Positions 17,515-42,046 of a stretch of DNA of 64,000 nt are shown one piece after another (position 1 is the first letter of the stretch; each line of letters begins with the position of its first letter). The notes below the pieces were generated by a model, which did not search any database, was not told where the DNA came from, and saw only the letters and a list, made by a program, of their open reading frames with translations. Made by a program: the position numbers and the translations under genes. The stretch is from an uncultured virus (IMG/VR IMGVR_UViG_3300034815_000029). Taxonomy: Duplodnaviria > Heunggongvirae > Uroviricota > Caudoviricetes. The stretch lies in the IMG/VR virus record IMGVR_UViG_3300034815_000029, one strand, 5' to 3'.

Positions 17515-17524
17515 GTCCTAACCC

Positions 17525-18690: not shown

Positions 18691-18692
18691 GA

Positions 18693-22677: not shown

Positions 22678-22684
22678 GTCGAAA

Positions 22685-22732: not shown

Positions 22733-22761
22733 AGCAACTCCGGAATAGGGGCTATTTTAAG

Positions 22762-27948: not shown

Positions 27949-29371
27949 CGCTGGCCTCCTGATACGGCCTGCCCGCCGAAGCGGTCCTACCGCGCATCTT
28001 CTCCATGCGCGCCAATTTCGACGGAACAGGGGCGCTTCTGTGCCGGTCGTCGAAACGGGTATACTCACCAGCAAAGGTCACATGCACCGTCCCCGTTGGG
28101 CCATTGCGTTGCTTGCCGATGATGATTTCGGCAATCCCCTTGTCCGGGCTGTCCTCGTTGTAAACTTCGTCGCGGTAGATGAACAAAACAATGTCCGCGT
28201 CCTGCTCGATGCTGCCGGAGTCGCGCAAATCGGAAAGAATCGGCCGCTTGTTGGGGCGGGATTCCAGGCCGCGATTGAGCTGAGCCAACGCGATCACCGG
28301 AATGTGCAGCTCCTTCGCCAGCAGCTTCAGCGCGCGGGAAATTTCCGCCATTTCATAGGCGCGGTTGTCCGACTTGCCGGAGCCTTCCATCAGTCCGATA
28401 TAGTCGATCACCACCATATGCAGCCCGCCGCACTCACGGTGCAGCCGCCGCGCCCGAGCGCGCAGCTCGTTGGCCGTCAAGGAGCCTTCCTCGTCCAGAA
28501 ACAGGTGGGTCTCGCGCAGATCACTGGAGGCTTTGTAGAGCTTGGCGAATTCGGCCTCATTCAGGCGCCCGATCTTCACCCGCTGCTGGTTCAGGCGCGC
28601 CACCGAAGCCAGCAGGCGCACGCCCAGTTGATTGTTGGCCATCTCCAGGGAGAAGAAAGCCACGTTCTTGCCGCTCTTCAGCGCCACGTGTTCCGCGATA
28701 TTCAGGGACAACGCCGTCTTGCCCATCGCCGGCCGCGCCGCCACGATGATCAGCTCGCCCGCCTGAAACCCCGTCGTCATCCGGTCCAGTTCCTCGAACC
28801 CCGTCGCCAGCCCGGTCACATCCGTCCGGTTCGGGTTGCCGGAAAGGTCATCGATCTGGCGCAACACATCATCCAGCACCGAACCCACATGCTGCGGACC
28901 CTCCGAACCATTGGCAGCCGACTCGCTCACCGCCATCACCTTGCTTTGCACAAAGTCGAGCAGATCCTTCGCACTGCGCCCGGCCCGGTTGGAAATCGCC
29001 TCCGCCCCCTCGCCCAAAGCCCTGCCCAGCGAACGGATCACCGAACGCTCGCGCACAATCTCCGCATAGCGCTTGATATTCGCCGCGCTCGGCGTGTTCT
29101 GCATCAGCCCGGCCAGAGAGGACAGCCCGCCCACATTCTCCAGCTCGTGGTGCGTTTCAAGGAACTCCGAAACCGTGATTACGTCGGCGGTCTTTCCGGC
29201 CTCCAGCAGGCGCGTGAAGGCCCGGTAAATCTTGCGGTTTTCGATAGCGTAGAAATCGCTCTCGCTGACCACATCCGCGATCTTGTCCCAGGCATTGTTG
29301 TCCAGAAAAAGACCTCCAAGAACAGAGTGTTCGGCATCCAGGCTGAATGAAGCATCCTGCTCATTCGCCAT
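27932..29371 (-). CDS. dnaB: Replicative DNA helicase
   Basis: AARPAMGKT, FSLEM, VIDYI, LRDSGSIEQDAD, KQRNGPTG. Confidence 0.97.
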   Translation of the reverse strand: MANEQDASFSLDAEHSVLGGLFLDNNAWDKIADVVSESDFYAIENRKIYRAFTRLLEAGKTADVITVSEFLETHHELENVGGLSSLAGLMQNTPSAANIKRYAEIVRERSVIRSLGRALGEGAEAISNRAGRSAKDLLDFVQSKVMAVSESAANGSEGPQHVGSVLDDVLRQIDDLSGNPNRTDVTGLATGFEELDRMTTGFQAGELIIVAARPAMGKTALSLNIAEHVALKSGKNVAFFSLEMANNQLGVRLLASVARLNQQRVKIGRLNEAEFAKLYKASSDLRETHLFLDEEGSLTANELRARARRLHRECGGLHMVVIDYIGLMEGSGKSDNRAYEMAEISRALKLLAKELHIPVIALAQLNRGLESRPNKRPILSDLRDSGSIEQDADIVLFIYRDEVYNEDSPDKGIAEIIIGKQRNGPTGTVHVTFAGEYTRFDDRHRSAPVPSKLARMEKMRGRTASAGRPYQEASGGVDM

Positions 29372-29561
29372 TGCGCGACCTCGCATCCTGCTGCTTCTGC
29401 CAGTCGTCCCTGCACTCCGGGCCGCAGAACTGTTCCTCGACGGGGGAGTGGCACCAGTGGCAGGCGCCGATTGACGGCAGGGAATGAATCGACCGGGCGG
29501 CTTTCAAGGCGCGATCCCGGTCGGCTTCCTCGCGGTCACTTGCTCGGTCGGCTTCGTCCAT
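29361..29561 (-). CDS. TraR/DksA-like C4 zinc-finger protein
   Basis: MDEADRA...CHWC...FCGPEC. Confidence 0.7.
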   Translation of the reverse strand: MDEADRASDREEADRDRALKAARSIHSLPSIGACHWCHSPVEEQFCGPECRDDWQKQQDARSRNGE

Positions 29562-29699: not shown

Positions 29700-30080
29700 T
29701 CACGCCATCCCCTTGCCCACTGCCTTGATCAGCGCCAGCACGTCCGGCAGCTGCTTCGCCAGTTCAGCCAGAGCGCGGCGCTGCTTCACATCCTCATCTG
29801 TCAGGTATTTCTCGACCAGGTAATAGATCGGGGTCATATCCCCGGTTGCGGCGATGAACTTCTCCAGATCCTCGACCGTAAACCGGCGGTGGTCTTCCGG
29901 ATTCCCGGATAGCTTCCGGGACAGCTCGGACTGGCTCAAGTCCATGTCCGCTGCGATGGTCTTGAGCGGGTTGCGATGCGTATAGGTCGCGGCCCTGACG
30001 CAATCCAGAATGGTCGCGTGGCGCTCGGAAAGTCCGGGCGTGAAATCAAGGGTAAGCTGGCTATTGGAAACTGTTGTCAT
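29700..30080 (-). CDS. CII-like regulator
   Basis: HTH (IAADMDLSQSELSRKL), downstream of cro. Confidence 0.65.
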   Translation of the reverse strand: MTTVSNSQLTLDFTPGLSERHATILDCVRAATYTHRNPLKTIAADMDLSQSELSRKLSGNPEDHRRFTVEDLEKFIAATGDMTPIYYLVEKYLTDEDVKQRRALAELAKQLPDVLALIKAVGKGMA

Positions 30081-30137
30081 GATTCTTTCCCTTACTTTCC
30101 TATAGGAAATCTGGCGAAAAAAAGAAGATAGCCTCAG

Positions 30138-30407
30138 TCATGCCGCAGCCCGTTGATTTGGGTTTTCGCCAAAAACATCCGAGCGCAGGTCATAGCGGGT
30201 TACTTGTCCGCCAGTCGCGTCCTCGATAGCACGGCAGTGCTCTGCGGGCGGCATTGGAGTCTTGGTGGTGTTCAGCCAGTTCCAGACGTGGCCCTGGGCA
30301 ACGCGCACTTCGCGCCCATTCGCCTGGTGCCATTCACGGATGGCGGTCGCCAATGCGACTTGACCTCCGACGAGTTCGATTGCTTTTTGGAGTGGGGTAA
30401 TCATCAT
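30138..30407 (-). CDS. Cro/YdaS-like regulator
   Basis: GGQVALA...AIEDATGGQVTRYDLRSDVFG. Confidence 0.85.
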   Translation of the reverse strand: MMITPLQKAIELVGGQVALATAIREWHQANGREVRVAQGHVWNWLNTTKTPMPPAEHCRAIEDATGGQVTRYDLRSDVFGENPNQRAAA

Positions 30408-30409
30408 GG

Positions 30410-30492
30410 AAACAAATTACCATCATCGTAGTAACGATGTCAACCATCATTGTTGTTTTACACAATACAAGCACGGTTGTATTGTTCAATCC
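30410..30492. promoter_or_regulatory. Divergent cro/cI operator region
   Basis: ACCATCATCGT and ACCATCATTGT near-palindromes; related ACAATCATCGT at ~31898. Confidence 0.6.
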
Positions 30493-30843
30493 ATGAATCT
30501 TGCAGAGCGGATACAGACAGCCAGAAAGCATGCCGCCCTTACACAGGGAGGATTAGCCGAAAAAGCGGGGATTTCTCAGCAGGCCATATCTCGCCTTGAA
30601 ACTGGCGAACAAAAAACCACCACCGATATTGTGCAGATCGCCGTTGCCTGCGGAGTCCGTCCTGAGTGGCTGGCAATGGAATCTGGCGATATGGTGGATG
30701 GGTTGTACGTGCATGACGAAAAGCTCAAGCAGTTGCTCAAAATCGCTCAGGAGTTGCCAGAGTACGGAAAAGACAAGGCGATACGGGAAGTTACTGAGAT
30801 TGTTGAATTCATCGAACAGGCAGCCAAGGCGGCGAAGCAATAA
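30493..30843 (+). CDS. CI-like XRE repressor without peptidase domain
   Basis: LAERIQTARK..LTQ.LAEKAGISQQAISRLE. Confidence 0.85.
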   Translation: MNLAERIQTARKHAALTQGGLAEKAGISQQAISRLETGEQKTTTDIVQIAVACGVRPEWLAMESGDMVDGLYVHDEKLKQLLKIAQELPEYGKDKAIREVTEIVEFIEQAAKAAKQ

Positions 30844-30945
30844 CGTGATCCAGCTTCAAATACAGCTCGCCTTTTGCTTCGACAAGGACACTTATGGCGC
30901 TTAAAAAGCGCGGAAGGCAGTAAACCGAAACGGAGGAATATCGTA

Positions 30946-31458
30946 ATGCGTAAAATTTGTTTCGTTATTTTATGTGCCATTTTAGGCGGCTGCGTTGCTC
31001 CTCAAAAGATAAGCATTTCATCACCGTTCGATCCCGTTCTAACGAAGAAATTGCTTGCGGATGGGATAAACACTATTCAGGGAAGCGCCCTTATCAGGCA
31101 AAGAGGGGGTGGCGTCGTCACCTGCGCAGGACAGGAGGTAACACTTACCCCTGCAACAGCTTACTCATCCGAAAGGGTAAAGGCGCTCTTTGGGTCATCG
31201 CTGGGCGGCTATGCCCCCGCTTTTGGTGGGCGACGAGTCGAATTTGAAAGTACAGCACCAGAATATTGGTCATCCTCAAGATCGACAATATGTGACGCTC
31301 AAGGTAATTTCAGGTTCGATAAAATGGCCGATGGATCATTTTATGTAAATACTCAAATCACCTGGAACGTCAGCCCTTACGCGACGGAAGGGGGAAGCAT
31401 AACCCGTTTAATCACATTATCCGGCGGGGAAACTAAGAATATCGTGCTTACCCCTTGA
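30946..31458 (+). CDS. Lipoprotein (moron)
   Basis: ILGGC lipobox; GGAGG RBS. Confidence 0.8.
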   Translation: MRKICFVILCAILGGCVAPQKISISSPFDPVLTKKLLADGINTIQGSALIRQRGGGVVTCAGQEVTLTPATAYSSERVKALFGSSLGGYAPAFGGRRVEFESTAPEYWSSSRSTICDAQGNFRFDKMADGSFYVNTQITWNVSPYATEGGSITRLITLSGGETKNIVLTP

Positions 31459-31539
31459 TGCTGAAATTGCCCACCAACCCCAGCAACATGCAATGGCAGA
31501 CCACCGCAGAGGCCAGGGCCAAGGATAAATGGGAATAAT

Positions 31540-31779
31540 ATGAGCGCTCATGACTATACGGTCGAGTTTGACTATCTGACTGGCGGGGCTATTTCGGCGA
31601 CTGCAACCCCGGACGGCAGCCTGGTTGCGATTGATTTTGTCCTGCTTCATGACCCATCAATGGCAGTCCGCCTCGCTGTCCCCGCAGAGAAATTAGAAAG
31701 TCTGACCAACGCTTTACTTCAGATTCAGAAGGCCCTGGACGATCCGGAAAGCGGAATACATATTCGCCCTTCGCATTAA
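31540..31779 (+). CDS. Hypothetical protein
   Basis: ORF followed by a terminator. Confidence 0.55.
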   Translation: MSAHDYTVEFDYLTGGAISATATPDGSLVAIDFVLLHDPSMAVRLAVPAEKLESLTNALLQIQKALDDPESGIHIRPSH

Positions 31780-31809
31780 TCTTCATATCTAGCATTTCAC
31801 TCTCCCCAT

Positions 31810-31834
31810 AACCCGCTTCGGCGGGTTTTTTGTT
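31810..31834 (+). terminator. Intrinsic terminator
   Basis: ACCCGC-TTCG-GCGGGT followed by a T run. Confidence 0.85.
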
Positions 31835-31885
31835 GCCCGCGATTTGCGGGTTTTTTCATTGTAGCAAATAAAACAATGATAATGG

Positions 31886-31915
31886 TTGACACATAAACAA
31901 TCATCGTTGTATATT
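31886..31915 (+). promoter_or_regulatory. PL-like early promoter upstream of the cassette array
   Basis: TTGACA-18 bp-TATATT with an operator-like motif in the spacer. Confidence 0.7.
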
Positions 31916-32135
31916 GAACCCCATCGCACCATGAACACCGCCCCTACCGGCAATGACCAGCACCAAGGCACGGCCCACGGGTAGACAGCGCGACAGGCCG
32001 CAGGGCGGGCAGCACAGAACTGAAGAACCCGGTAGGCCGGGCGGTAGCTGGACCGTAACAGCCGACTCGGGGGTCCGAAAAATCCCGCCCTGGCCAGGGA
32101 AAACGGCACCAGACAACCCATAACAGGAGAAAACC

Positions 32136-32522
32136 ATGAGCCTGCTACAAAAAACCCTCGACAGCATCGAAGCCGAAGCCGACAAGAAAAGCGCCATCGC
32201 CGTGGCTCACGCCGGGACCATCCATGAACTGGAAACGCTCACCGGAATCCTGAGCGGACTGGGAGCCGGAGAACTCCGGCCCGTCGTGACTTTTCATGAA
32301 CGCACAGAAGACATCCACTCCGCGATGGCGATCGATGTCCGCATCCTGGTGTTCCAGGATCAAGCCGCCACGCTCCGGGCGGTGGATAAATCGGGGCGTA
32401 GCCATACGCTGGAGATCGGCAAAGGCTATGACGGCAGACCCGAAACTACCGTGCGCTTCGAGGGACTGTCCAGCTACATCACGATAATCGACTACGTGCA
32501 CGCAATGGAACAGGCGGCCTGA
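32136..32522 (+). CDS. Early hypothetical protein
   Basis: AGGAG RBS. Confidence 0.7.
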   Translation: MSLLQKTLDSIEAEADKKSAIAVAHAGTIHELETLTGILSGLGAGELRPVVTFHERTEDIHSAMAIDVRILVFQDQAATLRAVDKSGRSHTLEIGKGYDGRPETTVRFEGLSSYITIIDYVHAMEQAA

Positions 32523-32720
32523 ATGCAGACCCTGATCGGCATCCTCGTCCAGCCCTACGAAGAACAGCGCATCAGCCTGCTGATCGAGGGTATGCAGGCG
32601 CAGAAGCACTGGCTGAGTGTGGATGATTGCCTATACGAGATTCTAAACAACGGAATCATCACCTCCGAGGCGCTTTACCGCGCATCGATTAAAAATATGG
32701 AGAACGACCATGCCTATTGA
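32523..32720 (+). CDS. Early hypothetical protein
   Basis: Abuts the previous ORF. Confidence 0.6.
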   Translation: MQTLIGILVQPYEEQRISLLIEGMQAQKHWLSVDDCLYEILNNGIITSEALYRASIKNMENDHAY

Positions 32721-32901
32721 CCAAGTCATCCCGCTCGGCACCGAAACCCGCCCTGAAATCGCGGCCCGCATGGCGCAGGCGCGCGGACTCATGCTGCTGG
32801 TAAAGCAAGCCACCGGACAGATGATCCTGTGCAGCCGCAAACTTCCCGGCTGGCAGCGCTGGATTGTCGCCATTCACACCTACTCACCGGAGGCCGCATG
32901 A
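32710..32901 (+). CDS. Early hypothetical protein
   Basis: GGAG RBS, coupled. Confidence 0.6.
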   Translation: MPIDQVIPLGTETRPEIAARMAQARGLMLLVKQATGQMILCSRKLPGWQRWIVAIHTYSPEAA

Positions 32902-33125
32902 AGCTCATCATCACCGGATTGATTGTTCTCGCCGTCGCTGCCGCCCTGATCGTCAAGAATGCCGATGCGATCGATAGCTATCAGCTCCACAACGACGGCG
33001 TCACCGCCTGCAAACCGCCGCGCAACGAAGCCGAGAAGCTCGTCGCTACGCTCTACAAAAGCGCCGATGGCGGGCCGCTTACGCTGCATTGCGCCTACCA
33101 CGCCACTGTGAGCTTTGCGCTATGA
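32898..33125 (+). CDS. Early protein with signal/TM segment
   Basis: GGAGG RBS, ATGA overlap. Confidence 0.6.
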   Translation: MKLIITGLIVLAVAAALIVKNADAIDSYQLHNDGVTACKPPRNEAEKLVATLYKSADGGPLTLHCAYHATVSFAL

Positions 33126-33346
33126 GCGTAACCCGCTTCCAGATGCTGACACAGGCACAGCGCAACTTGGACATGGCCGACCTGCTGGCAGCCAATGGAG
33201 ACTATGACGGCGCAGCCAGGAACACGGCCGCAGCCAGAGCACTGATTTTCACCGAGAGCACCAACCCGCCCAGCCGGAGCGTGGCGGCAAGCCCGAATAA
33301 CACCGGCAGCTGCAGCGCTGGCCGAGAAAGCCTCCTTACAGCGTGA
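33122..33346 (+). CDS. Early hypothetical protein
   Basis: ATGA overlap. Confidence 0.55.
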   Translation: MSVTRFQMLTQAQRNLDMADLLAANGDYDGAARNTAAARALIFTESTNPPSRSVAASPNNTGSCSAGRESLLTA

Positions 33347-33383
33347 TGCAACCGGCCGCCGGGAGCCGTAATCCCGGCACTTA

Positions 33384-33461
33384 TTTGAACGTAGAGCTAA
33401 CCGGCGGCGCTTTAGCGCCGTCCAGCGACCGAAGGGAGCGAGGTTGAGCGCCTTGTTAGGG
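33384..33461 (-). repeat. attC A (78 bp)
   Basis: Minus strand CCCTAAC AAGGC GCT[C]AACC...GGTTAGC TCTAC GTTCAAA. Confidence 0.88.
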
Positions 33462-33474
33462 GCCAACTGCACGG

Positions 33475-34173
33475 ATGATTGAACTGCTACACACCGACTG
33501 CATGACTTACATGGCGGCGCTGCCAGATGCGGCCTTTGACTTGGCGATTGTTGACCCGCCATACGGGCGCGGCGAGGACGGCGGCACAAACCGATGCCAC
33601 GGCGTGAAGCAGAAGAACGGCGCGGTGCTGCGGTGCCTCGATGGCGGCTACGCGAAGAAGGCTTGGGACAAGGAACCGCCACCGCCTGAGTATTTCGCGG
33701 AACTGCGCAGGGTGGCAAAGCACCAGATTGTTTGGGGTGCGAACTACATGCCGGTGAAACTGCAAGGCGGGGCAATTGTTTGGGACAAGGTGAATGACGG
33801 AGCCGACCAGAGCGGCGCGGAAATAGCCTACTGCAGCTTGAACGAGCGCGTGGACGTGGTGCGCTATATGTGGCGCGGGATGATGCAGGGAGAGGCGGTA
33901 GGCAGCCAACGCCAGCAGGGAAACAAGGCGCTGAACGAGCGCCGGATTCACCCGACACAGAAGCCGGTTAAGTTGTACGAATGGTTGCTGCAGCAGTACG
34001 CGCAGCCGGGAATGAAGGTTTTAGATACCCACCTTGGCAGCGGGAGCGCGGCGATTGCAGCGCACTACTACGGGGTGGATTTTGTGGGGTGCGAGATAGA
34101 TGCCGACTACTGGCTAGCAGCCAAGGAACGGTTTGAGGCTGAAACCCGGCAGATGGCGTTACTTGGCCCCTAA
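33475..34173 (+). CDS. N4C/N6A DNA methyltransferase, cassette A
   Basis: DPPY, HPTQKP, LDTHLGSGS. Confidence 0.9.
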   Translation: MIELLHTDCMTYMAALPDAAFDLAIVDPPYGRGEDGGTNRCHGVKQKNGAVLRCLDGGYAKKAWDKEPPPPEYFAELRRVAKHQIVWGANYMPVKLQGGAIVWDKVNDGADQSGAEIAYCSLNERVDVVRYMWRGMMQGEAVGSQRQQGNKALNERRIHPTQKPVKLYEWLLQQYAQPGMKVLDTHLGSGSAAIAAHYYGVDFVGCEIDADYWLAAKERFEAETRQMALLGP

Positions 34174-34229
34174 CGCATAGGTAAGGGGACTGAGCAACGC
34201 GAAGTTCCCGCTTGACCGCTGAGTTAGGC
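34168..34229 (-). repeat. attC B (62 bp)
   Basis: CCCTAAC...GGTAAGGGGA...TCCCGCTTGACC...GTTAGGC. Confidence 0.9.
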
Positions 34230-34253
34230 GGAATTTTGAAAAAGGAGATGGTC

Positions 34254-34427
34254 GTGGCAAAACTAATAACGTTGAACATTGAGCGATTTGTGGTTTGCAG
34301 CACTGGCGAGGAAATGGAAATACCAGAACCGGCAGACAGTCTTGAAGCCGCGATAAAACTTCGAGACGATAAGCAGGCTGGTGATGAATATGAGACATGG
34401 GAAATTGTGGCGGAAGTTGCCGCCTAA
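34254..34427 (+). CDS. Hypothetical protein, cassette B
   Basis: AAGGAG RBS; stop codon in GCCTAAC. Confidence 0.65.
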   Translation: MAKLITLNIERFVVCSTGEEMEIPEPADSLEAAIKLRDDKQAGDEYETWEIVAEVAA

Positions 34428-34512
34428 CGGCGAAGCTAAGGGGCGCGAGCGATGACAAAACAACGAAGTGAGCCGGATGTTCGAGCGTCACGCCTTGAGC
34501 GCCTTGTTGGGC
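34422..34512 (-). repeat. attC C (91 bp)
   Basis: GCCTAAC...GCTAAGG...CCTTGAGC...GTTGGGC. Confidence 0.82.
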
Positions 34513-34676
34513 GATTGTGGGCATTAGTCTGGAGGCGATGGATGACTGGCCCAGGTGGGCAACCTCGCCGTGTGGTGCGCGTGAAGGGGTGGCGCACTGC
34601 GATTATTGAGAGCGATTGGGAAATGCGGCAGACCATTACGCCATGTTTCTCGATTTTTGGATGGCGGTTTGATTGA
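34452..34676 (+). CDS. Hypothetical protein, cassette C (starts inside the attC loop)
   Basis: ATG at 34452 lies within attC C. Confidence 0.55.
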   Translation: MTKQRSEPDVRASRLERLVGRLWALVWRRWMTGPGGQPRRVVRVKGWRTAIIESDWEMRQTITPCFSIFGWRFD

Positions 34677-34680
34677 TGAC

Positions 34681-34747
34681 GCCCAACGCCTGATTTCACC
34701 GGCCTGAGCGGCTTTTTGCTCAGGTCCGGTGGAATGATTGGTTGGCC
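34681..34747 (-). repeat. attC D (67 bp)
   Basis: GCCCAAC...TTCACCGGCCTGAGC...GCTCAGGTCCGGTGGAA...GTTGGCC. Confidence 0.9.
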
Positions 34748-34775
34748 GGCTGGTAGCTACGAAGTGAGGAATTAA

Positions 34776-35483
34776 ATGGCTGAAAAAGTAACGATAGGGA
34801 CCGCTGAATTGTGGCACGGAGACTGCAGGGAAGTTCTGCCGTTGCTGCCAGACTGCGACCTGATTTTGACAGACCCGCCATACGGCCTGAACGAAGCGGC
34901 CGGAAAGAACCGAAGCCGTGGAAGCGCTGCAGGCGCGAACAAGTGGAAAGGCTCGCGCAACACGACAGGTGTTGGCGTTGCCTCGACGGACTTTGGCGAG
35001 CCGAGCGAATGGGATAGTGCGCCGCCCCCGACGTGGGTGATTGAGATGATGCGCGCCAAGGGGAAATGGCAAGTGATGTTCGGCGGCAACTATTACCCGC
35101 TGCCGCCGGCCAGGTGCTGGCTTGTGTGGGACAAGGACAACGGGGAAACCGATTTCGCGGACTGCGAACTTGCGTGGACGAACTTGCCGAAAGCGGTGCG
35201 CCGGCTGCGCTGGATGTGGAACGGCATGCTGCAGCAGGACATGGCGAACAAGGAAGAACGACAGCACCCGACGCAGAAGCCGGTGCCGGTGATGCGGTGG
35301 GCTTTGCTTCAAGTTCCCGACGCCGAGACGGTTTGCGACCCATTCATGGGCAGCGGAACAACAGGGGTGGCGTGTTGGATGGAAGGGCGGCGGTTCGTCG
35401 GCATTGAGCGCGAACGCCGGTATTTCGATATTGCTTGCGAGCGGATTGCCCGCGCACAGGCACAAGAGCGGCTGTTCGCATGA
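34776..35483 (+). CDS. N4C/N6A DNA methyltransferase, cassette D
   Basis: TDPPY, HPTQKP, DPFMGSGTTG. Confidence 0.92.
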   Translation: MAEKVTIGTAELWHGDCREVLPLLPDCDLILTDPPYGLNEAAGKNRSRGSAAGANKWKGSRNTTGVGVASTDFGEPSEWDSAPPPTWVIEMMRAKGKWQVMFGGNYYPLPPARCWLVWDKDNGETDFADCELAWTNLPKAVRRLRWMWNGMLQQDMANKEERQHPTQKPVPVMRWALLQVPDAETVCDPFMGSGTTGVACWMEGRRFVGIERERRYFDIACERIARAQAQERLFA

Positions 35484-35487
35484 AGAC

Positions 35488-35556
35488 GGCCAACGCAGAG
35501 GTAAGCCGATGACAAAAGCGCAGCTTTTGGCAGTCGGCTTGACCGCCGGGTTAGCC
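35488..35556 (-). repeat. attC E (69 bp)
   Basis: GGCCAAC...GGTAAGCCGA...TCGGCTTGACC...GTTAGCC. Confidence 0.9.
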
Positions 35557-35736
35557 GGGGGCCGAGCCGCACACGAACAATGGGAGCGCACCCGAGGCGA
35601 TGAAAACGAGTGCGATGCAGAGAAACGGCTACACGAAGAGGTTTCAGAAAGTGGCAACACGATACCGAGTGAGTGGTGGCATGGATGGCTCGAACGCTCC
35701 GATGAGTGGCGAGACGAAATCGAACATGCCGGCTAA
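35509..35736 (+). CDS. Hypothetical protein, cassette E (starts inside attC)
   Basis: GAGGT RBS and ATG within attC E; stop codon in GGCTAAC. Confidence 0.55.
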   Translation: MTKAQLLAVGLTAGLAGGRAAHEQWERTRGDENECDAEKRLHEEVSESGNTIPSEWWHGWLERSDEWRDEIEHAG

Positions 35737-35790
35737 CGATTAGCTTAAGGGGCGGCTGTTAAGCCGTCCCGCTTGAAGCGCCGGTTAGGC
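35731..35790 (-). repeat. attC F (60 bp)
   Basis: GGCTAAC...CTTAAGGGGCGGC...GCCGTCCCGCTTGAAG...GTTAGGC. Confidence 0.9.
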
Positions 35791-35804
35791 GCAGAAAGGT
35801 GAAT

Positions 35805-36047
35805 ATGACAGCAAGGCACGAAATAGGGAAGTGGCTGAATGAACAGCCGAACCGCGAGATTGACCGGCGGGTATTGGCCGAGCTATGTGCGGAGCATGAC
35901 CGAATGGCTCATGCCCTGATGACGCTGCTCGGGGAAACCGAGGACAGCGACTACATGAGTGCGGCAGAACAGCGGGCGATGGCGCGGGATGCGCTGCCGC
36001 CTAACGTCGGCGGTAACCGGCTTGCGCCCGCACAGGAGCAACGATGA
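35805..36047 (+). CDS. Hypothetical protein, cassette F (reads into the next attC)
   Basis: AAGGTG RBS; its 3' part is also present at 1-127. Confidence 0.7.
   Translation: MTARHEIGKWLNEQPNREIDRRVLAELCAEHDRMAHALMTLLGETEDSDYMSAAEQRAMARDALPPNVGGNRLAPAQEQR
35880..36006 (+). repeat. 127-bp exact direct repeat, copy 2
   Basis: Identical to 1-127. Confidence 0.97.
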
Positions 36048-36092
36048 AGAACACCCTTGCCGGCGCAAGTCCGGTTGACCAACCAGTTAGGG
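35999..36092 (-). repeat. attC G (94 bp)
   Basis: GCCTAAC...GGTAACCGGCTTGCGCC...GGCGCAAGTCCGGTTGACC...GTTAGGG. Confidence 0.88.
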
Positions 36093-36349
36093 CGCTGCCT
36101 GAGCCGTTGCCGTGCCCGTTTTGTGGGCGACAGCCGGAGCTAGACAACCCGGACACTCTTTACCCGAACGGCACCGGGTGGAAGCCTTGGCGAGGCTTCC
36201 GTTCTTATGTAGGGTTCCGCGAAGTGCCGAAGGAACAATGGTGCTACGGGATGCACTGCTGCGAGTGCTGCGGTGGATGCGGGGCAGAGATTCACGGCGA
36301 TAGTGCAGCCGAGGCGGTAGAGAAGTGGAACCGGCGCCCTAACGCATGA
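36044..36349 (+). CDS. Lar-family restriction alleviation protein, cassette G
   Basis: LPCPFCG...C..CGA...AVEKWNRR; AGGAG RBS and ATG in the attC loop. Confidence 0.8.
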   Translation: MKNTLAGASPVDQPVRALPEPLPCPFCGRQPELDNPDTLYPNGTGWKPWRGFRSYVGFREVPKEQWCYGMHCCECCGGCGAEIHGDSAAEAVEKWNRRPNA

Positions 36350-36401
36350 AATGAGGGGCAGCGCCGCTTTTGCGCTGTCCCGCTCGATTGACGGGTTGTG
36401 C
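36337..36401 (-). repeat. attC H (65 bp)
   Basis: CCCTAAC...AATGAGGGGCAGCGC...GCGCTGTCCCGCTCGATT...GTTGTGC. Confidence 0.9.
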
Positions 36402-36427
36402 GTCAAAACGTAACTACGGAGTGAGGA

Positions 36428-37432
36428 ATGAATGAGTTGGAGCTTTTCGCAGGCGCTGGTGGCGGAATACTCGGGTCAATGTTGCTCGGGCACAGAACCG
36501 TATGCGCCGTTGAATTCGATGCATATGCCAGATCAGTTTTATTGGCCAGACAAGCCGACGGAACATTCCCGACTTTCCCGGTTTGGGACGACGTGCGCAC
36601 CTTTGACGGAACACCGTGGCGCGGAATTGTTGACGTGGTTTCGGGAGGTTTCCCGTGCCAGGATTTGTCGGTTGCGGGGAAAGGGGCAGGACTTGATGGA
36701 AAGCGCAGCGGATTGTGGCGAGAAATGGCGCGGATCATTGGCGAAGTACGACCCCGCTACGCATTCATTGAAAACAGCCCAGCTCTCATTACTAGAGGAC
36801 TTGACCGGGTGCTCTGTGATCTTGCCGCGCTCGGGTTTGATGCGCGATGGGGTGTGCTCGGAGCTTCCGATGTTGGCGCTCCGCACAAGCGCGAGAGAAT
36901 CTGGATATTGGGCTACTCCCGCAGCTTCGGACGGGACACGGGGAGGAAAAATCACCGACAAGATGACGGGGCAATCATTGGTTCAGATGGTCAACACGCC
37001 AGCGAAGTGGCCGACACCAACGGCGAGCGACCACACGGGGCCGGGATATGCCGCGCAGGGCGGGTTGAATTTGAGGACGGCGGTTGCTCTATGGCCAACC
37101 CCGACAGTCTGCGGGAACTACAACCGCAATGGAGCGAGTGCATCGAGCGGGGATGGGTTGGCAACTGCTGTTCGGACGTGGCCAACAGCAACAGCATACA
37201 AGGGCTGGAGTCAGAAACACAACCGAGCGAACACGGACGACCGGCTGGATTATTCGGTGGAACGCGAGAATTTCAGCATTGGCCAGCAGACCCCGCCGAT
37301 GCGCCTGAATCCAAATTGGGTCGAGTGGTTGATGGGTTGGCCAATCGGGCAAACAGAATTAAAGCCATTGGAAACGGGCAGGTTCCGAGAGTTCGAGCAG
37401 CAGCATGGCGGATTTTGACGCACAACGGCTGA
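36428..37432 (+). CDS. C5 cytosine DNA methyltransferase (alpha polypeptide), cassette H
   Basis: LFAGAGG, GGFPCQD, IENS, HKRERIW, IGNGQVP. Confidence 0.92.
   Translation: MNELELFAGAGGGILGSMLLGHRTVCAVEFDAYARSVLLARQADGTFPTFPVWDDVRTFDGTPWRGIVDVVSGGFPCQDLSVAGKGAGLDGKRSGLWREMARIIGEVRPRYAFIENSPALITRGLDRVLCDLAALGFDARWGVLGASDVGAPHKRERIWILGYSRSFGRDTGRKNHRQDDGAIIGSDGQHASEVADTNGERPHGAGICRAGRVEFEDGGCSMANPDSLRELQPQWSECIERGWVGNCCSDVANSNSIQGLESETQPSEHGRPAGLFGGTREFQHWPADPADAPESKLGRVVDGLANRANRIKAIGNGQVPRVRAAAWRILTHNG
36432..37418 (+). CDS. Overlapping +1-frame ORF, putative beta polypeptide of the MTase
   Basis: Open along the whole gene; WPTP repeats; motif IX-like LNPNWVEWLMGWP. Confidence 0.65.
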   Translation: MSWSFSQALVAEYSGQCCSGTEPYAPLNSMHMPDQFYWPDKPTEHSRLSRFGTTCAPLTEHRGAELLTWFREVSRARICRLRGKGQDLMESAADCGEKWRGSLAKYDPATHSLKTAQLSLLEDLTGCSVILPRSGLMRDGVCSELPMLALRTSARESGYWATPAASDGTRGGKITDKMTGQSLVQMVNTPAKWPTPTASDHTGPGYAAQGGLNLRTAVALWPTPTVCGNYNRNGASASSGDGLATAVRTWPTATAYKGWSQKHNRANTDDRLDYSVERENFSIGQQTPPMRLNPNWVEWLMGWPIGQTELKPLETGRFREFEQQHGGF

Positions 37433-37504
37433 GGTAACCCGGCCGCGCCGCTTTTGGCGCGGTCCGGTGAGCGAAGCGAACGAAGGTTGACCGATGGGTT
37501 AGAA
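37420..37504 (-). repeat. attC I (85 bp)
   Basis: GCACAAC...GGTAACC...GGTTGACC...GTTAGAA. Confidence 0.85.
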
Positions 37505-37525
37505 GGCATTTTGATCGGAGCGAAC

Positions 37526-37864
37526 ATGAACATAGCAGAAGCGGCGGAGTGGCTTGAGCAAATGAGCAGCGAGAAGGCCGCACAGATTGTGCTTGAGCAC
37601 TACCACCTGAAACAGCACTTGTGCGCCCAACGCCTCGGCGTGCCGACCGGCTGCGACGATTGGGTTGCGCGCGCCATTGAACGCGGCGAACACCTGCGGG
37701 AATGCGAAATGCAACTGCGGCTGCTGCTCGACAAGGGGAGCGCGATGCTGGCGGAAGTGAAGTGGAAGACGCGCCACACGGAATGCACCAACTGCCGAGG
37801 CACCGGCCGCACTGGCGAAAATGCTTGCTGCATCTGTCGCGGGACGGGCGCTCGTGCCTTCTAA
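37526..37864 (+). CDS. Protein with DnaJ-type CxxCxGxG zinc finger, cassette I
   Basis: CTNCRGTG...CCICRGTG. Confidence 0.75.
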   Translation: MNIAEAAEWLEQMSSEKAAQIVLEHYHLKQHLCAQRLGVPTGCDDWVARAIERGEHLRECEMQLRLLLDKGSAMLAEVKWKTRHTECTNCRGTGRTGENACCICRGTGARAF

Positions 37865-37924
37865 CGCTGGCGTAACCGGCGCGGAGCCGAAGGCGGAGCG
37901 TCCGCGTTGACGCAAATGTTAGGC
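37859..37924 (-). repeat. attC J (66 bp)
   Basis: TTCTAAC...GCGTAAC...GTTGACGC...GTTAGGC. Confidence 0.85.
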
Positions 37925-37935
37925 ATGGAGTGACG

Positions 37936-38286
37936 ATGAAAGTAAAAGATTGGCACGAACCCAAAGACCAAATGTGCAACTTGGGGCGGCATAGTTGGAG
38001 CGTGCCGCGCCTGTTTGAGCTTGCGCGAGAACTCCCGGTGATGGACGTTCCGCTCAACCACCTGAGCCTGTACTACACCTACGAGAAGCTGACGCTTCGG
38101 GAAATGGTGATGCACATGCGTGCGGTCAATGACGCCGACCTAGAGAAGCCCATCATTTTGGACGAGGACGGGGAACTGATGGACGGACGGCATAGGCTGA
38201 TGAAGGCGATGCTGCTAGGAAACGAAACGATTAAGGCGGTACGGTTCGACGAAAACCCGTCGCCGTGCCAAGTGCGAGATGCCTAA
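37936..38286 (+). CDS. ParB/Srx N-terminal-like protein, cassette J
   Basis: PIILDEDGELMDGRHRL. Confidence 0.78.
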   Translation: MKVKDWHEPKDQMCNLGRHSWSVPRLFELARELPVMDVPLNHLSLYYTYEKLTLREMVMHMRAVNDADLEKPIILDEDGELMDGRHRLMKAMLLGNETIKAVRFDENPSPCQVRDA

Positions 38287-38346
38287 CTTAAAGTAGGCGT
38301 CATGCCGTGCATTAACTAATCGAGCAAAACCAATACAGGAGCCAAC

Positions 38347-38550
38347 ATGCCAAGCTTTAAGCCGGACTTGAGAATCACCGTACAAATTGGCGAAGCATCA
38401 TTCTCCATCGGCGGTTTGCTCCTGCCGGATGGCCGGTATCTTATCAAGCGAGGTCGGGTTATTTCCAAGAAAATGCCACGCGCCAGCCTGACAAAGATAT
38501 TTGAAGTGGCTCGTAAGTGGGCGGTTAATCAACGAAACATGGCTAGATAG
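38347..38550 (+). CDS. Hypothetical basic protein
   Basis: AGGAG RBS. Confidence 0.6.
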   Translation: MPSFKPDLRITVQIGEASFSIGGLLLPDGRYLIKRGRVISKKMPRASLTKIFEVARKWAVNQRNMAR

Positions 38551-38554
38551 TTTT

Positions 38555-38720
38555 CATGCTTACTTGATATATTGCCAGCTTGCTAGGCTGCCTTCTTGCT
38601 GGCTTGCAATCTTGCCAGCTTGCTGGTTGGCCTACTTACTGACTAGTTTTATTGCTTGCTGCATGGCTGGATTGCTGGCTTACAAAACGGCTTGCTTGTT
38701 ATCTGATTTGTCTGCTACAA
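38555..38720. repeat. Degenerate short-period repeat tract, putative parS centromere
   Basis: Many TTGC/TGCT/GGCT units directly upstream of parA. Confidence 0.6.
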
Positions 38721-38750
38721 ATACAGTATGTCGTCACCACTGGAAAAATA

Positions 38751-39395
38751 ATGGCTCAGATATTCGCCGTTGCAAACACCAAGGGGGGAGTGGGCAAGAC
38801 CACTACCGCCGTACATTTCGCCGCCTGGCTGTCGTACCGCGGCAGAACCCTGCTGATCGACACCGACAAGCAGGCCACGGCAGGCTCATGGTCGAGCTGG
38901 CGCCGGGATAACTCCCTGTCGCATAATCCCGACACCGTGCTGCTTCTCAATGACATGGTAGCCAAGGAGGGGAGGGCGCTGGCCAAGGGCTACGATTACG
39001 TGGTGATCGATGCCGGTGGCAAGGACAACCAGGGTATGCGCTACGCCATGCTGATCGCCGATAAGGTGATCGTGCCAATGTCGCACTCGAATTTCGATTC
39101 CGCAGCCTGGACCGACATGTCCGAGATCATCGAGGGCGCGAGGATCAATAACCCGAATCTGGCCGTTCAGGTGTTCATGTCCCGCATCGACACCCGGCGC
39201 CGGCCGCCGCAGGATCTGCGCGACTACCTGGCCGAGCAGCAGGTTTCCGTGGCTGATACACAGATCCCGGAGCGTGCCGCCGTCCTCGCCGCAACAGACC
39301 GGGGCATGGCTGTGTTCGAGATCCGCAAGTCGAGCCCGGAGGCGATCGCCTTCGATGATCTGTTCAACGAGATCATGGGAGGCCAGCATGGTTAA
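38751..39395 (+). CDS. parA: Short (type Ib) ParA ATPase
   Basis: KGGVGKTT, LIDTDKQ, YVVIDAGG; no N-terminal HTH. Confidence 0.9.
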   Translation: MAQIFAVANTKGGVGKTTTAVHFAAWLSYRGRTLLIDTDKQATAGSWSSWRRDNSLSHNPDTVLLLNDMVAKEGRALAKGYDYVVIDAGGKDNQGMRYAMLIADKVIVPMSHSNFDSAAWTDMSEIIEGARINNPNLAVQVFMSRIDTRRRPPQDLRDYLAEQQVSVADTQIPERAAVLAATDRGMAVFEIRKSSPEAIAFDDLFNEIMGGQHG

Positions 39396-39735
39396 GGGTA
39401 AGCCGGACTTATCGCACCTCACACCTTCAGCTATCGAGTTCGCCCAGGCCGCAGACAAGCCAATTATTCCGCCTCGAACAATGGCTGAGATTTTCTCTGC
39501 CGAAACAGAGCCGGCTGCGCGCAAGCACGATAAACAACAAGACCGCATTGCGCCACTCCAGGAGGGCAAGGTAGCCGCGCCGTTGCGTCTGGCCCCATCC
39601 GTACAGCAAAGAATCCGCCGGCTGGTATTCGAGCAGTCAGAGCGGCTAGGGGTGAGGGTGACGGCACAGGACTTCATGGAGTCGGCCATCATGGAAAGAT
39701 TGAGCCGGGAAGAAAAGAAGGTTGATCGTGCGTAG
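39388..39735 (+). CDS. Putative small centromere-binding protein (RHH-like)
   Basis: Overlaps the parA stop; flexible N-terminus and beta-alpha-alpha-like C-terminus. Confidence 0.6.
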   Translation: MVKGKPDLSHLTPSAIEFAQAADKPIIPPRTMAEIFSAETEPAARKHDKQQDRIAPLQEGKVAAPLRLAPSVQQRIRRLVFEQSERLGVRVTAQDFMESAIMERLSREEKKVDRA

Positions 39736-39739
39736 ACCG

Positions 39740-40033
39740 ATGGAGCGAAGCGAAATTATCAGGATGGCGCGCGAAGCTGGGATAAACTTTGACCCGGCCG
39801 GACCATCCGATGACGGTATAGATACTTGGTACGGAAACCAGTATCTACCAAGTGGGGCTATTCGGCGATTAATAGAAATCGCACAAGCAGCAGAGCGTGA
39901 GGCGTGTGCGAAGTTGTGCGAAGAACTGATTGCGCCACAGGGAACGGGCAGTCCAAGCGTGTACGAGGTTGCAACCATGGATTGCGCAGAGGCCATTCTG
40001 AATCGTGCGATGACCGATGATGTTCGGGCCTGA
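39740..40033 (+). CDS. Phage hypothetical protein
   Basis: IIRMAREAG...AEREACAKLCE...CAEAI. Confidence 0.7.
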   Translation: MERSEIIRMAREAGINFDPAGPSDDGIDTWYGNQYLPSGAIRRLIEIAQAAEREACAKLCEELIAPQGTGSPSVYEVATMDCAEAILNRAMTDDVRA

Positions 40034-40608
40034 GTCCATATTCGTCGTGCAACGACCGATATTCATCCGGGCAATGACCGATAAGGCTACAAGCCACAAG
40101 CCAGCAAGGGCAGGGCAGGGCGGTGAATTTTGAGTCACGCTAATCCGGTTTTAATACATCTTAATACCGGCGAACATCGGTCAACGCACGAAACATTGGA
40201 GAGCAACATGACAGACAGAGAACTGCTGGAATTGGCTGCAAAGGCATATTGGGGTGATGAAATAGGAGATGTAGTGTCGATCTGCTATAGCGAACTGGAT
40301 GAATCAATTGCATTCACTCATGGCGAAAACCAAGACCATAACGGGCATGACCGCACGCTTCTGTGGAACCCGCTCACAGATGACGGTGACGCGCTGAGGC
40401 TGGCTGTGAGGCTCAAGCTGGAGGTTGCTATCCATGAAACTGAATCCGGCGTAATCAACGGAAACCTGATCGGTGGAATAGAGAAACATGGCGACGACCC
40501 ATACGCCGCCACTCGCCGCGCAATCGTGCGAGCGGCAGCAGAGATTGGCAAAAGTGTAGTGGCGCCAAACTAACGGTCATTGCACGAAGATCAACGGTCA
40601 TTGCACGA
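40003..40608. repeat. Six 16-bp iterons, putative oriV
   Basis: Consensus AWCGGTCATTGCACGA: inverted at 40003, 40045, 40067; direct at 40176, 40572, 40593. Confidence 0.75.
40208..40573 (+). CDS. Phage hypothetical protein
   Basis: MTDRELLELAAKA...WNPLTDDGDALRLAV...ATRRAIVRAAAEIG. Confidence 0.8.
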   Translation: MTDRELLELAAKAYWGDEIGDVVSICYSELDESIAFTHGENQDHNGHDRTLLWNPLTDDGDALRLAVRLKLEVAIHETESGVINGNLIGGIEKHGDDPYAATRRAIVRAAAEIGKSVVAPN

Positions 40609-40659
40609 ATCCATGTCTTGCAGCTCTGCTATGATTCAGGCGTGAAGAAGGGGAGGGGT

Positions 40660-41496
40660 ATGGCATCGGAACTGGAAGAACGGGTTAAACAGATGGCCGC
40701 TCGTGCAAAGACCGTGGCTGTAGAGACTACGCTGCAGCTCCCGCTATGGCGCGAGGACGTGCGCGGACTGCCTAATTCGCTTGCCCGGTCCGCCCTGTTC
40801 AATGTCGCCAACAAGAAAAAACAGCGCGAGTTCTTCAAGAAGAAGCTGATCGCCTCGGTCAAGGGCGTCGAGATCGTCTACCAGGGCGAAGAGCTGCGCC
40901 AGATGGACGAGGATGTATTTCTGCAGATGCTGCACATATCCCGGATGCAACCGCTGGGCGAGTGGGTCGAGTTCAAGGCGCACGCCTTCCTGAAGGCCCT
41001 TGGCTGGTCACCGAACAGTCGATCCTATGACCGGCTGCGCGAGTGCCTGATACGCTTGTCTACCACGACTCTGACGGTGAAATTCGCGGACGGCAAGCAG
41101 GGCTACGGCGGCTCGCTGGTGCGGAAATTCGCCTGGACGGAAGAGGACGGCGCAACAAAGCTGCAATTCTGGCGCGTCTGGCTGGAAAAGGAAATCATCA
41201 GCCTGTTCGGGCCGGTTGATTACACCCGTCTGGATTGGGAGCAGCGCCTGAGTCTGCCGCCCCTGGCCAAGTGGTTACACGCTTTCTACTTCACCCACAG
41301 AGAACCGCTTCCGTACAAGGTGGAAACCCTGAAAACCCTGTGTGGATCTGACGCCAAGACGGTTTACCATTTCCGCAGCGACCTGAAAGCGGCACTGCAG
41401 ATCCTGAAGGACATCGCTTTCCTGTCAGACTGGCAGCTCGACAGCCGGACCGACACGGTACGCGTGGTGAGGAACTTCAAGAACCTCGTGCATTGA
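40660..41496 (+). CDS. trfA: TrfA-family plasmid replication initiator
   Basis: QLPLW clamp-type motif, PNSLARSALF, YQGEELRQ.DEDV, LAKWLHAFY.TH..P. Confidence 0.85.
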   Translation: MASELEERVKQMAARAKTVAVETTLQLPLWREDVRGLPNSLARSALFNVANKKKQREFFKKKLIASVKGVEIVYQGEELRQMDEDVFLQMLHISRMQPLGEWVEFKAHAFLKALGWSPNSRSYDRLRECLIRLSTTTLTVKFADGKQGYGGSLVRKFAWTEEDGATKLQFWRVWLEKEIISLFGPVDYTRLDWEQRLSLPPLAKWLHAFYFTHREPLPYKVETLKTLCGSDAKTVYHFRSDLKAALQILKDIAFLSDWQLDSRTDTVRVVRNFKNLVH

Positions 41497-41585
41497 CCGA
41501 GGCGGCGGTTTGTGTTAAAACAAGAAACGCATTTTTAATCAATTACTTAGTTCGTGTAATGTGCATTATGTTAAATGAGGTAAAA

Positions 41586-41852
41586 ATGAAAACGCTGCTG
41601 ATAACATCGCTCCTGATTTTGCTCGCCGGATGTGCGCCTGGCTTGCAACAAAAGCCCGTCACCTTGCCGAATGGGGCTCAAGGGTTATACATCTCTTGCA
41701 ATGGTTCGCGTTCTGACTGGACCATGTGCTATGAAATGGCGGCTAAATCCTGCGGCGGGAAATACACGATCATCGAGAAGAAGGAAACCAACACGCCTGA
41801 TGATGGCGGGCCTATCGTGAAGCGCTTCATGATGGTCGAGTGTCCAAGATAA
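41586..41852 (+). CDS. Small lipoprotein
   Basis: LLAGC lipobox; Cys pattern. Confidence 0.75.
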   Translation: MKTLLITSLLILLAGCAPGLQQKPVTLPNGAQGLYISCNGSRSDWTMCYEMAAKSCGGKYTIIEKKETNTPDDGGPIVKRFMMVECPR

Positions 41853-41857
41853 CGATC

Positions 41858-42046
41858 ATGGACAATGCCGTAATCCCGCTCTTTGTCGTCGCGTTTGCTG
41901 GCTATGTGTATTACGTGGCCAGGATGGACAAGAGCGACCAGGAGTCGCACCTGTTCAAAGTCTGGATAGGACTGGCCCTGATGGGCGTCGCTTCCCTGGT
42001 GCTGACAGCAATCTTCCCGGAATTACGGGGTAGCGGGGGTGGATAG
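41858..42046 (+). CDS. Small two-TM membrane protein
   Basis: Two hydrophobic segments. Confidence 0.5.
   Translation: MDNAVIPLFVVAFAGYVYYVARMDKSDQESHLFKVWIGLALMGVASLVLTAIFPELRGSGGG

Follow-up and report, generated by a model that had tools for sequence, protein, structure and literature searches.

Introduction

Integrons are known mainly as gene-capture platforms of bacteria, and few phage examples are in print. In class 1 integrons, the attachment site attI1 lies beside the integrase gene intI1 and comprises an R and an L box together with the direct repeats DR1 and DR2, while a cluster of attC sites without an integrase is referred to as a CALIN. Here we analyze a stretch of 64,000 nucleotides (the window) from an uncultured virus (Caudoviricetes; IMG/VR record IMGVR_UViG_3300034815_000029), in which arrays of attC-flanked cassettes end at three sites sharing the motif TTTAAG|TT. 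Sites 1 and 2 belong to a phage that we call phage A, and site 3 belongs to a second element (phage B). An original prediction, made from the sequence alone, regarded the motif as a candidate attI-like entry site.

In general, attI sites are described as carrying two integrase-binding boxes (L and R) 4–5 bp apart plus accessory direct repeats (PMC12614218, PMC9892861). Truncated delta-attI sites within mobile-integron arrays, for example delta-attI1-11, are reported to be still used by IntI1 (PMC12901181). A survey of 10,705 phage genomes by Qi et al. (2023) yielded 3 complete integrons, 17 CALINs and 1 In0 element, and phage attC sites recombined with attI1 through IntI1 (PMC9892861). Phage integrons and CALINs are thus already published. 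For the attI family and the flipped early-operon layout reported below, our literature search, which covered few subscription journals, found no description.

We consider it likely, with a probability of about 0.8, that all three sites are attI-type junctions of cassette arrays and that the DNA of the window has lost intI; cassettes may enter and leave it through an IntI acting in trans.

A common junction at three array ends

Read in gene orientation, each site joins a cassette end (..AAC) to TTAAA.. and follows the last open reading frame (ORF) of an attC array (Table 1). The core of sites 2 and 3 contains the TAA stop codon, while the TGA stop at site 1 (1038–1040) is located 5 nt upstream. 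All three strings quoted in the original prediction exist. As top-strand readings, however, they are right only at 22750–22767; the other two represent the bottom strand, the top strand being GCCGAACTTAAATTC at 1042–1056 and GCCTAACTTAAAGTAGGC at 38281–38298. The match of sites 2 and 3 at 15 of 21 positions is correct by counting. It was further claimed that the arrays end with a core but lack an attC hairpin, and this is borne out by DNA minimum free energies of −6.4, −2.9 and −6.7 kcal/mol (51–56 nt), compared to −11.6 to −24.9 kcal/mol for 13 attC sites called by hand in the window. Our own attC detector called none of the three sites; each offers only an R''-like core, with no 3' partner arm within 130 nt.

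The reverse complement of TTTAAG|TT, AACTTAAA, has four matches on both strands of the window (1046 and 38285 on the plus strand, 22756 and 51008 on the minus strand), three of them at array ends, while 0.47 matches are expected and none of 100 shuffled sequences reached four. The earlier statement that three TTTAA matches are unlikely by chance therefore holds. A chance or regulatory motif, such as a promoter or terminator of the downstream gene that is unrelated to recombination, would fit the AT-rich, promoter-like character of TTTAAG/TTAAA. The same can be said of the fourth AACTTAAA, which lies within a coding region (a 4626-aa ORF at 51008), and of one unrelated viral contig family that matches an 18-mer inside a gene. 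Nevertheless, besides the shuffling result, the motif stands in the same register with the cassette core at all three array ends, it is the commonest 8-mer upstream of intI in viral relatives (see below), and cassettes switch exactly at the motif. We regard this explanation as the least probable of those considered.

The junction beside integron integrases of viral relatives

An attC-arm pattern matched more than 123 IMG/VR contigs, and in these and related loci (numbered with the prefix L) our detector called arrays of up to 11 attC sites. Relatives of the integron integrase are encoded at 71 IMG/VR loci. All 13 that were compared to TIGR02249 (cut-off 265) passed, IntI of L264 with 479 bits and the 12 others with 405–475 bits. 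The L264 protein is 55–57% identical to IntI1 and starts, on the same strand, 84 nt after the array-end AAC, where the sequence reads GACGGCTAAC|TTAAATTCAACGACACC or, in a longer reading, GACGGCTAAC|TTAAATTCAACGACACCCGATGTCGCGTGAAC..CATGTCGCATAAC.

In 49 of the 58 loci with DNA upstream of intI, AAC-NNN-AATT occurs no more than 260 nt upstream of the intI match, at a distance of 61–151 nt; L438 has one further copy, 2 nt from the start of its intI match. The 49 loci give 42 distinct attI sequences, and AACTTAAATT is the reading at 24 of the 58. An anchor-free count of 8-mers in the 200 nt upstream of intI (53 distinct regions) placed AACTTAAA, ACTTAAAT and CTTAAATT on top with 21 of 53 each, followed by TTAAATTC (20) and ACGACACC (18). 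Enrichment of TTTAAG at array heads elsewhere, the absence of which had been named as a refutation, is thus found. AACTTAAA stands where the variable end of a cassette (RYYYAAC) gives way to a conserved attI (TTAAATTC-ACGACACC..TGTCGC..TAAC), for which the intI-sense consensus is AAC|TTAA ATTCAAC GACACC..TGTCGCGTGAAC..TGTCGCATAAC. Cassette turnover is visible where identical attI sites adjoin different left cassettes (L264/L408 versus L407/L409, L410 versus L411, L457/L458 versus L460). The position of the motif at the cassette-end/attI boundary of intI-bearing viral loci supports the proposal of either a minimal attI or a target preference of the integrase.

The same loci bear on the idea that the sites are decayed attC sites, i.e., an R''-spacer-L'' half left by deletion and without a docking role. 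By eye, the sites (AAC + 4–6 nt + (R)TAGSC) and the 5' halves of attC (AAC + GCATAG + GTAAGG) are indeed alike at about 11 of 17 positions with one gap. However, the same junction is found beside intI in 21–24 loci, where it continues into attI repeats and not into an attC 3' arm. The missing partner arm argues against a half site as well, and independent deletions would not give an identical TTAA spacer three times. A half-attC origin is consequently very unlikely in our view.

Comparison with attI1

The phage attI shares several traits with attI1: the crossover falls at G|TT, or AA|C in intI sense, the site is double-stranded and lacks a hairpin, and it separates the first cassette from the 5' end of intI. 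In the class 1 locus L478, attI1 reads in intI sense AAC|TTTG TTTTAGGGC GAC..GCGTAAC..CCATAAC, an architecture that recurs in the phage sites; site 3 reads AAC|TTAA AGTAGGC GTC..GTGCATTAAC and the phage consensus AAC|TTAA ATTCAAC GACACC..GCGTGAAC..GCATAAC. The layout of the phage attI, with an R box contributed by the cassette, a spacer of 4 nt, then another box and ..GCRTAAC repeats, of which there are one or two, resembles that of attI1. Yet the sequence differs, no intI lies beside the window sites, and the adjoining cassette genes face attI. In addition, the second box of the commonest phage type (ATTCAAC) resembles a direct and not an inverted copy of the R box.

The three sites of the window differ in how much of this layout can be read from their sequence. 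At site 1, AAC|TTAAATTC agrees with the beginning of the intI-linked attI consensus at 8 of 8 nt, after which the sequence diverges into a low-GC helix-turn-helix (HTH) gene; only the R box, TTAA and ATTC are present. Site 2 in gene sense is GGCTAAC TTAA AATAGCC, that is, an R box, a 4-nt spacer and an inverted L-like box. At site 3, the inverted L-like box AGTAGGC is accompanied by one ..GTGCATTAAC repeat. Sites 2 and 3 share only 5 nt with the crossover-proximal bases of attI, while site 3 is collinear further on: 62 nt separate the start of its AAC from the ATG of orf67, a leader that aligns collinearly with those of short-type attI-intI in L428, L448 and L422 (63 nt from AAC to the ATG of intI). 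No family match was obtained for orf67 itself; homologues follow array ends in L244 (64% identity) and L328. Downstream of the homologue in L244, a 386-aa Xer-like tyrosine recombinase is encoded (4635–5795), which is not an IntI (TIGR02249 30.6 bits).

To score the resemblance we used a position weight matrix (PWM) of 28 columns, built from the 42 distinct intI-linked attI sequences, with four columns fixed by the anchor and a training range of 5.0–42.4 bits (median 33.8). In a scan of both strands (128 kb), site 3 ranked first with 18.7 bits.

Probable loss of intI and presumed remnants of attI

The integrase of phage A reaches 30.4 bits on TIGR02249, compared to the cut-off of 265, and is therefore not an IntI. 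With no intI in the window, the three sites are orphan attI-type junctions. In at least ten loci (L413, L428, L450, L452, L457–L460, L418 and L448), homologues of the phage A genes p1543, xis and int are located just downstream of intI, and intI occurs on one contig with a lambda-family portal gene in L452/L079 and L431/L077. On the reverse strand of L226 (~4640–5900) the attI is intact, and of intI about the first 35 nt are left, fused to an xis-like HTH gene and a phage integrase gene; the arrangement resembles an intermediate of intI loss by deletion. Comparison of these loci argues strongly for a derivation of sites 1 and 3 from a full attI by intI loss, and more weakly for that of site 2.

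With its crossover-proximal bases kept and its xis-int synteny with intI-bearing relatives, site 1 is, as far as sequence can tell, a relic of a truncated attI. Like a delta-attI, it shows a few crossover-proximal attI bases that persist at a cassette boundary (PMC12901181). Unlike site 1, which ends the array of an intI-less phage, the delta-attI sites described there lie inside clinical class 1 and class 2 arrays with intI. The window sites might still be usable by an IntI in trans.

Several observations speak against the proposed origin. First, the site 3 homologues in L244 and L328 read AAC|GTGTGA (AAC|GTGTGATAGGC or AAC|GTGTGATATCC) and not TTAAAG, which is consequently not conserved in the orf67 sub-lineage. 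Integrons with a more distant IntI (46–50% identity) have other junction sequences as well, and intI-less arrays elsewhere end with AAC|GTGAAGTAG, AAC|GTAAAGTAG or AAC|GCATGATCG. Since the junctions of L244/L328 and of the distant integrons differ, the conserved feature is the box-spacer-box layout of one attI family and not TTTAAG itself. Second, site 2 (3.2 bits, rank 4 on both strands) falls below the training minimum of the PWM, and site 1, which has only AAC and 8 nt in common with attI, scores −0.2 bits (rank 9 on both strands). Third, the strand bias of AACTTAAA in 569 kb of attC-bearing loci is slight, with six copies in attC sense and four on the other strand, where a rough composition estimate predicts about two per strand. 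Fourth, a tblastn search of the window with the L264 IntI gave a best E value of 0.43, the second element continuing past position 64000. In addition, the sequence on either side of site 2 does not align collinearly with the empty sites found in relatives with 68–75% portal identity. Two of our tools carry limits of their own: the home-made, strand-specific attC detector found 9 of the 13 hand-called sites of the window and made 3 false calls, and the Logan contigs used below prove that variants exist but not how frequent they are, rare variants being invisible.

Site 2 and possible insertion at secondary sites

Alternatively, IntI might have put cassettes into ordinary phage DNA at attI-core-like GTT positions, with TTTAAG as a target preference. 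Such attG-like insertions would suit site 2, where a single cassette is found in a head-gene region and distant from an integron platform. The cassette encodes a 3'-phosphoadenosine-5'-phosphosulfate (PAPS)-reductase-like protein and sits between a small gene (23842–23576) and a 183-aa gene that adjoins the portal gene. L004, L005, L011 and L042 (68–75% portal identity) do not possess the site 2 cassette; in cassette-less relatives the small gene ends ..ATAA|CTTTAC.. or ..ATAA|GTTCAC.., the former already resembling AAC|TT.A. Furthermore, cassette insertion at non-classical attG sites has been reported (Loot et al., 2024, as cited in PMC12614218 and PMC12901181). As in site 2, a single cassette bounded by GTT lies outside the platform there. 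On the other hand, attG diverges from attI and attC in sequence and structure in these accounts, while site 2 has the attI1-like box-spacer-box arrangement and the TTAA(A) of the family attI.

Site 2 does not look like a clean insertion: its surroundings and the empty sites of these distant relatives are not collinear, and the right flank comprises about 45 nt that the latter lack. The PAPS-reductase-like gene is, moreover, the attI-proximal cassette in L226, L363, L414, L347 and L354, which fits a transfer together with a piece of attI. The other sites fit secondary insertion poorly: sites 1 and 3 are located where relatives carry attI-intI, and about 60 nt of site 3 run collinear with a short attI. 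We judge insertion at secondary sites to be unlikely.

Homologues of the PAPS-reductase-like gene in attC contexts end ..GACGGCTAA|C, followed by attC or attI. Compared to L328 and L329, the boundary of the cassette is sharp at its 3' end only. An attI-adjacent cassette of this kind is found even where IntI is only 47–49% identical and attI differs.

Two elements in one contig

Pfam annotation identifies phage A as a lambda-like temperate siphophage. Logan contigs from four sediment-metagenome runs (X1–X4), one of which is possibly where the DNA of the window comes from, were aligned over 33000–38700. Window positions 1–127 and 35880–36006 form an exact repeat of 127 nt (D2; 100% identity), the identity of which stops directly after CCTAACG. 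The join from 36006 to position 128 onward is present in Logan contigs of X1, X2 and X4, while in X3 this continuation appears as a loose end. In X1, the depth falls about 4-fold at this point, from about 48–65 up to 36006 to about 12–19 past it. The X1 contig covering 35725–36006 has a depth of 68.4, compared to 48.3 on its left and 12.5 on its right, approximately the sum of both neighbours, and contigs fork at both of its ends. The window contig is thus a branching assembly that joins phage A to the rarer phage B. The repeat, the Logan joints and the fall in depth define phage A as a circle of 35,879 bp, while 36007–64000 is the second, rarer element with an array ending at site 3.

These findings change the delimitation of the arrays. 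Instead of the three arrays originally described, there is one long array in phage A, one single-cassette insertion and one array in the second element. By the evidence of the repeat, the joints and the depth, the former array 1 belongs together with the left-hand portion of array 3 in a single array of phage A, which runs from 33394 to 36006 and then from 128 to 1040 and ends at site 1. Single contigs of X2 and X4 cover 33419–36006.

Table 1. Features of the two elements in the 64,000-nt window (coordinates of the window; attC sites as called by hand).
Feature	Position	Strand	Remarks
Site 1	1042-1056	+	GCCGAAC|TTAAATTC; end of phage A main array; AT-rich HTH gene 1066-1338 next
Site 2	22750-22767	-	GGCTAAC|TTAAAATAGCC; end of single-cassette insertion
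Site 3 and attI-like leader	38281-38346	+	GCCTAAC|TTAAAGTAGGC; GCCTAAC TTAA AGTAGGC GTCATGCCGTGCATTAAC ..GGAG..
orf67 (67 aa)	38347-38550	+	Occupies intI position of relatives
Phage A array, first part	33394-36006	+	attC ~33394-33461, 34168-34229, 34422-34512, 34681-34747, 35488-35556, 35731-35790
Phage A array, continuation	1-1040	+	Joined to 36006; attC 120-178, 693-751
Cassette common to phage A and second element	35725-36006 (start 35725/35739)	+	100% identity; attC 35731-35790 and ORF 35799-36005
Second-element (phage B) array	36007-38286	+	attC 35999-36092, 36337-36401, ~37421-37512, 37859-37924
Single cassette in phage A	22762-23581	-	attC 23581-23522 and PAPS-reductase-like ORF 23517-22762
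Phage A DUF4224 xis-like gene	2058-2279	+	Upstream of integrase; left-end operon of same type
Phage A integrase	2283-3269	+	Phage-type tyrosine recombinase; PF00589 73.9 bits
Phage A tail and head genes	4379-22677	-	Pfam
Phage A portal gene	20555-22126	-	Pfam
Phage A gpA-type terminase	23844-25829	-	Pfam
Phage A Nu1	25829-26332	-	Pfam
Phage A DnaB	27932-29386	-	Pfam
Phage A cII-like and Cro-like genes	29700-30407	-	Pfam
Phage A cI-like repressor	30406-30843	+	Pfam; followed by long plus-strand operon
Second element, ParA	38652-39395		
Second element, TrfA	40618-41496		
Second element, further features	from 38300 on		Iteron-like repeats, 4626-aa ORF, SU10-adaptor-like gene

Cassettes and attC sites

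The attC-like sites lie on the plus strand at 33394–38286 and 1–1040 and once on the minus strand (23581–23522). In gene sense, an attC site starts with YAAC-G, often overlapping the TAA stop of the upstream ORF, forms an imperfect hairpin of 59–105 nt and ends with T.GA-N6-8-GTTRRRY at its 3' side. The bulged bases (T, T, G) are situated in the 3' arm of the gene-sense strand. RNAalifold, applied to a MAFFT alignment of the 13 sites, recovered only the apical 6 pairs. The hairpins at 35999–36092 and 35488–35556 each hold, within the terminal loop, the start codon of the ORF that follows (36044 and ~35511, respectively).

The cassette common to both elements is bounded by GGCTAA|C and GCCTAA|C. 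It makes the cassette unit directly visible, with attC 5' of the gene and the gene stop at the far boundary. Its perfect identity is possibly the trace of a common cassette pool. Cassette variants also occur within the metagenomes: in X2, the last second-element cassette is followed not by site 3 but by an attC (GCCTAAC|GCAGAGCTAAGGGG), the switch occurring exactly after GCCTAAC, and in X1 a different attC follows position 34688.

Orientation, expression and cargo of cassette genes

Across 46 loci, attC calls upstream of intI fell on the intI strand 75 times and on the other strand twice, compared to 2 versus 0 downstream. In the class 1 control L478, the detector called attC_aadA1 on the intI1-sense strand. 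Since the phage loci and L478 agree, the polarity of attC relative to intI is canonical. The genes, in contrast, are not oriented alike. The cassette genes dfrA1 and aadA1 of L478 lie on the strand opposite to intI1, whereas upstream of phage intI Pfam support was found for 17 of 71 same-strand ORFs and for 0 of 77 opposite-strand ORFs (ORFs of at least 110 aa; the first 148 of 341 ORFs, from 18 of 40 loci). Pfam matches were used because counting the strand of the longest ORFs upstream of intI (100 on the intI strand, 60 on the other) is uninformative in GC-rich DNA. Phage cassette genes are flipped compared to class 1: they face attI/intI, with attC 5' of the gene, and the TAA stop of the cassette ORF is part of the crossover core GTTA/TAAC.

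With the genes flipped in this way, expression must come from the upstream phage operon. One might speculate that a promoter-like site (TTGACA-N17-TATATT at about 31886–31920) drives the cassettes of the window. Upstream of relatives' arrays lie the phage backbone genes Sipho_Gp157, AAA_24, Rha and DUF2303, and the cargo of relatives' loci includes C5, N6/N4 and Dam methyltransferases, Mom and PAPS-reductase-like genes (Pfam). Within the window, the first part of the phage A array encodes, among others, two N6/N4 DNA methyltransferases, and among the ORFs of the second-element array one is Lar-like, one encodes a C5 DNA methyltransferase and two are unknown. Judged by these annotations, the methyltransferases and the Lar-like ORF would fit anti-restriction roles.

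Proposed mechanism

We suggest that one family of lambda-like temperate phages has a complete integron within its early operon, in the order cassettes, attI, intI, xis and int, with the cassette genes facing attI/intI and presumably read together with the early operon. At each site of the window, the cassette nearest to attI, which ends RYYYAA|C (G|TTRRRY on the other strand), would meet attI-derived sequence. TTTAAG would comprise the attI spacer and flanking bases, that is, the crossover-proximal core of the attI family. Phage A would have kept 8 nt of attI at site 1, the remaining attI and intI having been replaced by the AT-rich HTH gene. The second element would possess a diverged but collinear short attI at site 3 and the 67-aa ORF in place of intI. 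Site 2 would represent a lone PAPS-reductase-like cassette among head genes at a simple attI1-like site (R box, TTAA, inverted L-like box). Cassettes probably recombine at AA|C, attC with attI and attC with attC, on the folded gene-sense strand, and IntI might be supplied in trans by co-resident relatives.

A wider scenario can be envisioned, although we rate its odds as somewhat short of even: a widespread temperate phage lineage runs its own early-operon integron with anti-restriction cargo (DNA methyltransferases, Mom, Lar, PAPS-reductase-like), the flipped genes of which are read by phage transcription and not from Pc; the minimal attI sites of intI-less phages are served in trans by IntI of co-infecting relatives; and unrelated phages share a common cassette pool. 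Published phage attC arrays resemble those of the window in that some carry DNA methyltransferase genes, and a few complete integrons occur in temperate phages (PMC9892861). The part of that main text covered here contains no such attI family, no early-operon integron ahead of xis-int and no flipped cassette genes.

If the attI-type reading is correct, a defined attI family links dozens of intI-bearing viral contigs to phages that keep only the docking site. It also provides a clonable target of 20–60 bp for asking if phages exchange counter-defence genes by integron recombination; the same target bears on the sufficiency of truncated attI sites and on the reason for the cassette gene orientation opposite to that of classical integrons. 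For annotators it means that attC arrays of integrase-less phages can be relics of complete phage integrons and not captures from host chromosomes.

Additional observations

Some probes were tried and set aside. Among viral contigs, the degenerate 18-mer GSCTAACTTAAARTAGSC matched only the contig of the window and, within a coding region, an unrelated sequence present as two contigs; it proved too narrow. A 15-mer from the attC 3' arm gave at least 120 single matches scattered over all phyla of the genome contigs, as expected by chance, and a host integron was not found thereby. For a second class of array ends with 'AAGTAG', 2.0 Mb of loci gave only 5 distinct examples, including a chance match, which is too few to define a class. 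When near-identical segments between loci were considered as cassette boundaries, only 1 internal segment reached at least 93% identity. Rfam and tRNA scans of the window found nothing, and megablast of 30000–42000 against named phages gave no match.

In the virion-gene regions, 6353–7094 of phage A and 61378–62116 of the second element share about 73% nucleotide identity. Phage A further contains a 63-nt repeat (89% identity; 15807–15869 and 22670–22732) just 5' of two late genes, the first codons of which it includes. In relatives, its homologous counterpart is the end of the small gene plus a TTGAC promoter-like element; the repeat may regulate the late operon or mark a recombination boundary. 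A low-GC (~47%) insertion of two genes (526 aa and 165 aa; 15934–18022, minus strand), situated between the head and head-tail genes, represents a moron without attC boundaries and is followed by a terminator-like hairpin. In the second element, iteron-like repeats of the GCTTGCTGG type precede ParA at 38542–38681, and a similar copy is located at 52891–52930 in the region of the 4626-aa ORF.

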